Assembly: GCF_007183175.1 (NCBI RefSeq)
Contig: NZ_AP019807.1
Span: 2,403,785 to 2,443,784, forward strand
DNA: 40,000 nucleotides
Reading direction: 5' to 3'
Source of the DNA: Microbulbifer sp. GL-2
Lineage (GTDB): Bacteria; Pseudomonadota; Gammaproteobacteria; Pseudomonadales; Cellvibrionaceae
Shown here: piece after piece, positions 18,538 through 19,583 of the stretch
How the letters are laid out: every line of letters begins with the position of its first letter
How positions within the stretch are numbered: position 1 is the first letter of the stretch
The notes under the pieces: model-generated
The model's database searches: none
What the model was told of the DNA's origin: nothing
Seen by the model: only the letters and a program-made list of their open reading frames with translations
Position numbers and translations under genes: made by a program

Positions 18538-19583
18538 TGGTGGAAGTTCGCCCTCCCCTCGCCCCTTTGACTGGGCTGAGACTGCGGACCAGGGGGATAT
18601 CATCAACGTGTGAGATGTGGGGGCGGTATATCTCAGCAGAATATTGAGAGGGCATTACTGAATTGTTTCATGGTCTCTATCCGTGACGGCGTGGGGAATC
18701 TATTCGACTGTGCTTACTTCTCGTTTAGAGTACGCAGATTGTGCGTACCCTGGACGGTAAAGGTGTGGGTTTAATTCACTTCCATACATGGTGGCTCAGG
18801 CTGTGAATATCTACCTGGCGTAATGGGGTAGCTCCCGTTTATGGCTGAGTCTTTGGCGGGCCAGGGCATTCGATATCTCTACTTCTGGGACAGCGTGTAG
18901 ATTAACCGCCCACTAGTTGGCTTGATGGCTATGGCTGAACTCTAAGCCAAGCTTAGGGTTCAACGGGTCCTCCTGAGAGGCTAACACACGGGTAATTCGG
19001 ACCCCGCTCTGTTAACAGATATCTGATTTTTCCTAGGGGGTTATACCCTCCTTAGAGCCAGTTAGGGGCAAACCCCTAGTTCGGGGTTTGGTGTTCTGAC
19101 CAGCTGAACCCACGGGGGGTAGGTTGGATATCTGGCAGCCTTGTATCCGGCACTACCGTCCTAGCTTAGATTTCACAATGGCTTAATTCAGGTAGGGGGG
19201 AGTGATAATTAGGTAGTTGTTCTGGGCGTTTCAAACCGACAAAGCGTCGGTTTTGGTCTGGCAGTGAAAACCGGTGATTTGCCGGTTTTGGTTTAACTCT
19301 CAAAACCACCAGCCCTGTGGTTTTGGAGGTGATGAAACATAGGCGACCTGAATGCTGAGGTGACGTCGCGATTCGCGGCTCCATCTTATGCGCTCAAGAA
19401 GCCGTTCCTGCTCAAGCTGATCCCCTGTCGAATGCTAGCCAAACCGCCAGATTCGCGGTTTGAGGTACATGGAAACAGGCTAAGGCTAGGGTCAAATTCA
19501 GGTGGTACGGCAAGATGTGTATAGAGGCTTCAGTGGTACGTACTGCTGTTAAACCCCTCTAGTTGGGGGTAGGAATTCAAAGT
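18538..19583. other. ~1 kb ORF-free, hairpin-dense region (candidate structured ncRNA or cis-acting site)
   Basis: No credible ORF on either strand despite ~50% GC. Many local and nested helices, for example gtacgca/tgcgtac, and gggtcc[..cctc ctga gagg..]ggaccc. Confidence 0.4.

Follow-up and report, generated by a model that had tools for sequence, protein, structure and literature searches.

The gene-free kilobase described here, positions 18538-19583 of a 40,000-nt window of Microbulbifer sp. GL-2 DNA (contig NZ_AP019807.1; coordinates refer to this window unless another sequence is named), is the right arm of a 19,528-bp island (129 to 19657) inserted in a tRNA-Leu gene. Within this arm lies an 85-nt core which, judging from sequence comparison and with a probability of roughly 0.7, is the packaging (cos) site of a helper phage carried on a satellite. 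The tRNA-Leu(GAG) gene (66..151, plus strand; ARAGORN) provides with its 3' end (129-158) the attL core, and a 17-nt core, TTCAAGTCCCGCCCTGG, is found as an exact direct repeat at 129-145 and 19657-19673 (repeat D15) and delimits the island. The attR core, a duplicate of the tRNA-Leu 3' end identified by the same exact repeat, occupies 19657..19686 on the plus strand and has a terminator beyond it at 19710-19738. Read from its left end, the island carries a P4-type tyrosine integrase gene with arm-binding and catalytic domains (319..1557, plus strand; Pfam Arm-DNA-bind_3, Phage_int_M and Phage_integrase, NCBIfam PRK09692), a 404-aa ORF without annotation, an 82-aa AlpA-like regulator or excisionase gene (3008..3256, plus strand), two small ORFs, and an ori-like iteron block A of GGTGTTACA-type repeats (4217..4334; inverted repeat I1) directly upstream of the gene for the island replication protein, a 942-aa DUF927 primase/helicase (4406..7234, plus strand; Pfam DUF927, 5e-79; PHROG DNA primase). 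The AlpA-like gene was recognized from its ORF sequence and from orthologous genes of 82-86 aa in five sister islands (L021-L023, L025 and L026), which match PF05930 Phage_AlpA. A complete integron follows (7557-16400), then an HTH gene, next three genes of 171, 68 and 51 aa (17194-18048) that adjoin the arm on its left, and finally iteron block B, a crr-like second iteron set (18412..18535; repeats I1 and D1) that is kept, from its position 17284 on, in the sister island of M. magnicolonia (L022). The two iteron blocks form a 118-nt inverted repeat, 18415-18532 against 4217-4334, with 81% identity.

A preliminary description of this DNA had placed about 1 kb of roughly 50% GC, with no credible ORF, between iteron block B and attR, and this is borne out by the positions of block B (18415-18532) and of the 17-nt attR core (19657), by a GC content of 0.508-0.510 and by the lack of any ORF with a family match. 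The longest ORFs of the segment, both on the minus strand, encode 72 aa (19166-19384) and 76 aa (19530-19760), and searches of its 10 ORFs of at least 30 aa returned no Pfam or PHROGs match, the best being a single noise hit at E=0.011. From iteron block to attR the distance is ~1.27 kb in both the window island and L022.

The 85-nt core spans 18963..19047 on the plus strand, in the same orientation as in phages, where the small-terminase gene terS starts immediately 3' of it, and it contains the boxes GGGTCCT (18965-18971), GGGTAATTCG (18990-18999) and TTCCTAGGGGGTTATACC (19030-19047). A BLASTN comparison of the arm with a plasmid collection gave one match, 18958-19047 to a 43.5-kb circular element of Microbulbifer sp. 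MI-G (76%), and the same comparison with a phage collection gave no match at E<=1e-5. Full annotation identified the MI-G element (L001/L115) as a complete lambda-like siphovirus genome, in which a replication module, a holin gene and two ORFs are followed by the gap that holds the motif, and then by terS, a gpA terminase gene, a W-like gene, the portal gene, a protease/capsid fusion and the tail genes. The motif lies at 19839-19929 of that genome, where the intergenic gap measures 86 nt; the 173-aa terS product belongs to PHROG 57 and the large terminase is of the gpA type (PF20454, 2e-67). No other DNA is common to the island and the complete MI-G phage.

We found the 18-mer TTCCTAGGGGGTTATACC again in 10 IMG/VR contigs and a looser pattern of the motif in four Microbulbifer genomes. 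At every one of the 15 phage loci (L001-L015) the motif takes up the whole interval from the stop codon of the gene before it to the start codon (TTG or GTG) of terS, and so stands immediately upstream of the small-terminase gene; the upstream (lysis) module is annotated only in MI-G (L001/L115), so that the lysis-head junction is known from one complete genome. The layout holds across hosts of ~50% to >65% GC, phages with flanking DNA above 65% GC included. Predicted Ralstonia prophages carry the motif too, and two conserved boxes, GGGTCCTYC and CRCGGGTAATTCG, are independent of the search pattern. The cos site of phage lambda consists of cosQ, cosN and cosB and lies upstream of Nu1 in an intergenic gap of ~190 nt. 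The phage motif occupies the same position, being preceded by the last lysis-side gene and followed by the small terminase, the gpA-type large terminase, the W-like gene and the portal, although it has no sequence similarity to lambda cos and its gap is only ~86 nt.

The island copy of the site has no phage genes around it. Its core is 90% identical to the prophage cores of M. epialgicus and M. echini, 88% identical to the core of L022 and 69-72% identical to those of the GC-rich phages, whereas the 100-nt flanks are at background (49-63%), and satellite and phage resemble each other only in this non-coding site (core 69-90%) with no terminase attached. A tblastn search with the phage flanking proteins found no remnant of terS or of the upstream phage gene beside the island core, where the motif continues into CTCCTTAG with no start codon. 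A site acting as promoter, leader or Shine-Dalgarno sequence would thus lack a target in the island. RNAalifold on 12 core homologues gave -8.5 kcal/mol with a covariation term of only -0.05; in the GGGTCC/GGACCC pairing the left arm is invariant among them and the right arm reads GGACC, GGGCC, GCGCC, GAACC, GAGCC or GGCCC, with no compensating changes. Because of this invariant left arm, uncompensated right arm and missing covariation, the core fits a DNA site recognized by protein rather than an RNA structure. Readings of the core as an IHF site or a sigma-70 promoter were also considered and set aside, as the matches were weak and not kept in the GC-rich phages.

The gene content of the island is that of a satellite. 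Searches of its ORFs with Pfam, PHROGs and NCBIfam found no virion, lysis, relaxase, coupling-protein, mobilisation or conjugation genes. The island combines a terminal integrase, AlpA, a primase with an adjacent origin, att repeats, a size in the range of ~10-20 kb and the lack of structural and lysis genes, which are the features used to recognize phage-inducible chromosomal islands (PICIs). Matches in these searches were limited to the integrase, the primase, the integron integrase (intI) and cassette genes, so that the capsid-size and helper-control genes of P4-like elements were not found, and there was no match to sid, psu, delta or epsilon, three ORFs being unannotated and not covered by a structure-based search. 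From its sequence the island would best be read as a helper-dependent element of PICI type with a P4-type replicon in a Microbulbifer-like bacterium.

If the core is a cos copy, infection or induction of the helper would lead to excision of the island by its integrase with AlpA and to its replication from the iterons into concatemers. The TerS and gpA-type TerL of a lambda-like Microbulbifer siphovirus would then recognize and cut the island copy of cos, and island DNA would enter helper capsids, probably as multimers. The arm would bring together the sites for these steps, namely the iteron block with its extension (crr- or ori-like, serving the DUF927 primase-helicase), a palindrome, the cos copy, a hairpin array and the arm sites of attP. 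Candidate helpers are of the type of the Microbulbifer lambda-like prophages (L001 and L012-L015). Two lengths of the window island (2 x 19.5 kb) and three of L022 (3 x 12.9 kb) both come to ~39 kb, as against 43.5 kb for the MI-G phage; this arithmetic is compatible with multimer packaging although not statistically compelling. We know of no characterized satellites in the Cellvibrionales (Microbulbifer), and the island and these phages present a candidate satellite-helper pair in this marine group, with an 85-bp site that can be tested directly as a packaging signal.

Satellite P4 has an integrase, an alpha primase-helicase, ori and crr iterons, and a cos homologous to that of P2. The window island shares with P4 the P4-type integrase, an AlpA/Vis-type regulator, a large primase-helicase, two separated iteron blocks resembling ori and crr, and a putative cos copied from its helper; it differs in that sid, psu, delta and epsilon were not detected in the searches described above and in that the proposed helper is lambda-like (a siphovirus with gpA terminase) rather than P2-like. 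Another close parallel is with cos-type PICIs, represented by EcCICFT073 with lambda and phi80 and by SaPIbov5 of S. aureus, with which the island has in common the int-alpA-primase/replicase backbone, att repeats, no virion genes, a short non-coding site that would be a helper cos copy without terminase genes, and a size that amounts to a simple fraction of the helper's genome. EcCICFT073 is a Gram-negative PICI of int-alpA-pri/rep organization that has a cosN like those of lambda and phi80 and a different cosB (PMC6092414); deletion of both of its cos sites abolished transfer, and it is packaged as multimers in full-size capsids (PMC6092414). As in EcCICFT073, where it is cosB that differs, the sequence downstream of the conserved part departs from the phage in our island. 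Differences from the cos-type PICIs are the host Microbulbifer, the sequence of the putative cos, a terS family (PHROG 57) without a Pfam Nu1 match, no recognized Rpp-like or capsid-remodelling gene, the integron, and the placement of the putative cos in a 1-kb gene-free arm beside attR.

Several observations weigh against a packaging function. In the collections searched, no virion-derived record, no deposited genome end and, apart from the M. okhotskensis contig described below, no contig end places cosN in the motif. In 50,697 phage records, comparisons with the DNA and with the TerS protein gave only unannotated, predicted Ralstonia prophages and no characterized phage. The invariance of TTCCTAGGGGGTTATACC among the collected phages is by construction, since it served as the search pattern. 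Only two satellites, the window island and L022, carry the motif; the more distant sisters L024-L026 are without it, and a scan of the genome collection with the looser motif pattern found four Microbulbifer prophages and no further satellites. No gene for capsid size or for redirecting packaging was recognized in the island, in which three ORFs are unannotated, and the segment retains ~600 nt (18757-18950 and 19050-19500) outside any site with an assigned function. Finally, the phage motif runs right up to the terS start codon and has within it, 7 nt upstream of that codon, a Shine-Dalgarno-like AGGGGG, so that part of its conservation in phages could be translational or transcriptional.

This last point leads to the main rival reading, in which the island copied the 85-nt motif not as a packaging site but as a regulatory element of the helper's late operon (promoter, operator or mRNA leader), in order to sense late-gene activation. 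Satellites do borrow regulatory sites from their helpers, as in P4, whose late promoters respond to P2 Ogr, and the related island L026 carries a gene for a PrtN-type activator. In the window island, however, nothing conserved lies downstream for such a site to act on, there being no ORF and only 16-46% identity to the sister. Promoter prediction called no sigma-70-like site in the motif, and the GC-rich phages have other bases in place of its -35-like TTAACA. In phages the motif moreover lies mid-way in a long run of co-directional late genes, where lysis genes meet head genes, as lambda cos does. We therefore consider a regulatory role improbable in comparison with a cos role.

Two contigs of M. 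okhotskensis OS29 touch on the motif and on island-type genes. Contig NODE_408 (L015; 401 nt, coverage 129) begins inside the motif just after GGGTCCTCCTGG and ends within terS, and a further contig of the same genome (L027) carries island-type 114- and 67-aa genes and breaks ~260 nt after them. The start of NODE_408 is more likely an assembly branch point; the contig breaks in this genome may reflect repeats common to phage and satellite, or a real DNA end.

Alignment with L022, the only sister in which the whole homologous right arm is present (the 10-kb flank available for the L021 locus stops short of the arm), shows that conservation is uneven along the arm. Identity is 0.70-0.80 over 18500-18650 (iteron block and its extension) and 0.80 over 18700-18749 (palindrome), falls to 0.50-0.58 in a spacer at 18750-18949, rises to 0.84-0.90 over the core (18950-19049), is 0.16-0.52 in a variable stretch at 19050-19549 (most bins 0.16-0.46) and reaches 0.66 at the arm repeats (19550-19599). 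The conserved extension of iteron block B (18538..18700, 70-80% identical to L022) is not coding, because it differs from L022 by single-base indels. The arm is therefore a mosaic of short constrained DNA sites set in unconstrained, fast-evolving spacer, and not one long conserved molecule. An arm that holds sites for replication, packaging and recombination would explain why a mobile element keeps DNA without genes.

A reading in which the segment is mostly neutral DNA, an old cargo or gene remnant decaying between functional sites, draws on the same alignment: over 18757-18950 and 19050-19500 the identity to the sister is random or nearly so, and the sequence there differs between the two islands, including the deletion or insertion of the hairpin array. 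The preliminary description had itself named a frameshifted remnant of ordinary protein genes as an outcome that would overturn its proposal, and tblastn and profile searches found no such protein-level remnant; with all ORFs of the phage loci and Bro-N proteins as tblastn queries, the only matches in the region were the conserved DNA blocks themselves. The nearly equal arm length of both islands and the five-hairpin array, far from random (0/2000 shuffles), also speak against neutral decay, which accounts for the spacers and not for the conserved blocks. As an explanation of the segment as a whole we regard it as unlikely.

The same preliminary description had called the segment helix-rich and offered two interpretations, a cis-acting packaging site of the kind that satellites keep beside att and a large structured RNA. 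The former is supported by an 85-nt core that gpA-terminase phages share at the cos position and by the satellite character of the island. The latter, in which the kilobase would encode one large structured non-coding RNA, we consider very unlikely. In its favour are the lack of ORFs at ~51% GC and several local hairpins, among them the five-hairpin array and the element at 18730-18748, which is conserved, and covaries elsewhere. The four helices listed in the preliminary description are all present, yet folding of 150-nt windows across 18525-19574, on both strands and against dinucleotide shuffles, gave minimum free energy z-scores of -2.3 to +1.2, the same range as in adjacent coding DNA, and the only strong signal (z -4.7) was the tRNA fragment with its terminator at attR. 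The ggcgg/ccgcc helix is a trivial 5-bp match, the aggggcaaacccct helix at ~19062 is missing from L022, and only gtacgca-gattg-tgcgtac is real, conserved and covarying. The proposed Rfam comparison, run on the whole window at the gathering score, found no match in the segment, and at E<=10 in 17500-20300 nothing beyond terminator-like noise at attR, and the L022 arm gave no Rfam match either. About half of the segment (~450 nt) cannot be aligned with this closest sister, conservation is limited to short, separate blocks (20-160 nt), and the best of these, the core, is without covariation. Promoter-like and terminator-like sites across the segment occur at shuffle expectation and do not frame it. 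An oriT-like origin for conjugative mobilisation, suggested by non-coding DNA with hairpins near an island end, is hardly credible at all, since the island yielded no gene for a relaxase, a coupling protein or mobilisation, it is with phages, at their terminase locus, that the conserved block is shared, and the sole plasmid match is itself a phage genome.

The second conserved element of the arm is the 19-bp palindrome GTACGCA-GATTG-TGCGTAC at 18730-18748 (with flank, 18727..18757), conserved in the L022 alignment, in which this region is identical at 26/26 positions and the flanks at 50-58%. The exact 19-mer occurs in 64 IMG/VR viral contigs and a 22-mer in 20 metagenome contigs. Most copies lie within phage Bro-N antirepressor (Ant) genes, where they encode G-T-Q-I-V-R-T; the Ant annotation comes from Pseudomonas phage YMC11/02/R656 and Bordetella phages. 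The stretch that recurs in these genes is a 19-31-mer. At seven loci the gene is on the opposite strand, the loop is flipped and the protein reads G-T-H-N-L-R-T, and at ~12 loci the palindrome is non-coding. Across 80 homologous Ant genes (L116-L195), codons 2 and 6 remain reverse complements of each other while both vary (ACG/CGT, ACT/AGT, CGG/CCG, CTG/CAG, GTG/CAC and CCC/GGG), with paired amino-acid changes T..R, T..S, R..P, L..Q and V..H. In the 24 distinct sequences 87% of cells pair, compared with 26-53% when the partner is slid, and two-sided changes number 30 cells against 8.9 +/- 2.3 in shuffles, none of 500 shuffles reaching 30. A constraint at the level of nucleic acid or operator would here dictate protein sequence and be copied by satellites, a situation not described in the searchable literature.

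The window arm has one copy of the palindrome, and the L022 arm has three alleles in tandem (CGG, ACG and ACT) at 17569-17762. Tblastn found no Bro-N remnant around the satellite copies, and the MI-G phage is without the palindrome. The palindrome arms TG-nnn-ACC have the same frame as the island iterons TGTAACACC, and in two viral contigs the palindrome adjoins GGTGTTCA-N5-TGAACACC palindromes. A PrtN P-box (ATTGnnnGTnnn) was tried as an explanation and dropped, because it fits the ACG and ACT alleles and not CGG, CTG or GTG. Our inference is that the palindrome binds a protein as a symmetric site or forms a hairpin, and that it may be tied to replication or to recognition of the helper. More tentatively, GGGT-nnn-CA-GATTG-TG-nnn-ACCC may represent a hitherto undescribed class of cis-element whose satellite copies are helper-recognition sites (an operator or decoy, an origin-like site for an allele-specific DNA-binding protein, or a hairpin sensor) and which together with cos would form a 'helper-mimicry' module that sets helper range; we hold this to be a possible but doubtful extension. 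A literature search with the palindrome and motif strings found no paper containing the sequence.

Beginning 22 nt after the core are five hairpins of the form AAACCnn(n)-loop(5-7)-(n)nnGGTTT (19070-19089, 19233-19253, 19268-19288, 19303-19323 and 19441-19461), with constant outer arms and covarying inner base pairs. The rest of the 40-kb window has none, and not one of the 2000 shuffles mentioned above gave even a single such hairpin. The array is missing from L022 and is thus lineage-specific and not a core requirement of the arm; the hairpins could be weak bidirectional terminators that insulate cos and attP, or sites for a lineage-specific factor. We also observed that CTAGGGGGTT, within the 18-mer of the core, is complementary to AAACCCCTAG at 19070-19079 (repeat I13), which is at the same time the first AAACC hairpin's 5' arm and a part of the aggggcaaacccct helix, so that these pairings are mutually exclusive. 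The pairing of CTAGGGGGTT with AAACCCCTAG is not kept in L022 and is probably a chance effect of G/C runs.

Toward attR, arm-type repeats (GGTGGTAC, GTGGTAC, GTGGTGCTAC and TGGTGCTAT; 19501..19604, plus strand; repeat D12) are kept in L022. Four repeats of GGTGGTAC/GGTGCTA type in this interval match three beside the integrase gene at 241-290, and direct repeat D12 pairs 265-284 with 19583-19602 at 95%. These repeats are probably integrase arm sites that would form the P arm of attP after excision. An arm-type-like repeat, AAGTGGTGCTCTACC, is also found at 19838-19850, ~150 nt outside attR in the chromosomal flank, and may have been left by an earlier or tandem insertion at the same tRNA-Leu site.

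The integron within the island begins with an integrase gene on the minus strand (7557-8603; TIGR02249, 408 bits, the cutoff being 265). Behind it come six or more co-directional cassettes, whose attC-like repeats lie at 10024-10111, 11495-11582, ~12022, ~12973, 14186-14232 and 15863-15909 (direct repeats D1-D3 and D7). The cassettes include NADAR-domain, beta-lactamase-family and GFA-domain genes. We found no description of an integron on a phage satellite in the literature searched.

Among 299 homologues of the primase the nearest are in Microbulbifer, the identities being 96% (strain TRSA002), 80% (M. magnicolonia) and 76% (an uncultured Microbulbifer). The sister islands have a common integrase-AlpA-primase backbone beside a tRNA, and the cargo after the primase is swapped: L021 (TRSA002) carries a radical-SAM gene, DUF6375, a gene for a 1371-aa protein and an intI remnant (a 55-aa fragment); L022 carries Gp111, an M78 peptidase and DUF6161; L023 a CBASS operon (SMODS, E1/ThiF, JAB and SAVED-2TM); L025 a Schlafen/AlbA ATPase gene; and L026 OLD-TOPRIM with UvrD (Gabija-like) and the PrtN-like gene. 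This pattern makes the interval from primase to right arm a hotspot for defence genes and other cargo, and variable defence cargo of this kind is a further likeness to P4-like satellites (PMC9122126). With an integron and defence genes as cargo, phage-mediated transfer would spread both defence genes and a platform for cassette capture between strains.

The 171/68/51-aa trio recurs in metagenomic contigs (L028-L030), where it is found in integron-like arrays of small co-directional genes and is duplicated around ABM-domain genes. Rather than belonging to the satellite backbone, the trio may itself form a gene cassette and perhaps a toxin-antitoxin-like module. It was tried as an anchor for finding further arms and dropped, as it also occurs in integron-like arrays unrelated to the arm. 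Elsewhere in the window, three tRNA-Met(CAT) genes with identical scores stand in tandem at a spacing of ~117 nt (36922-37231).

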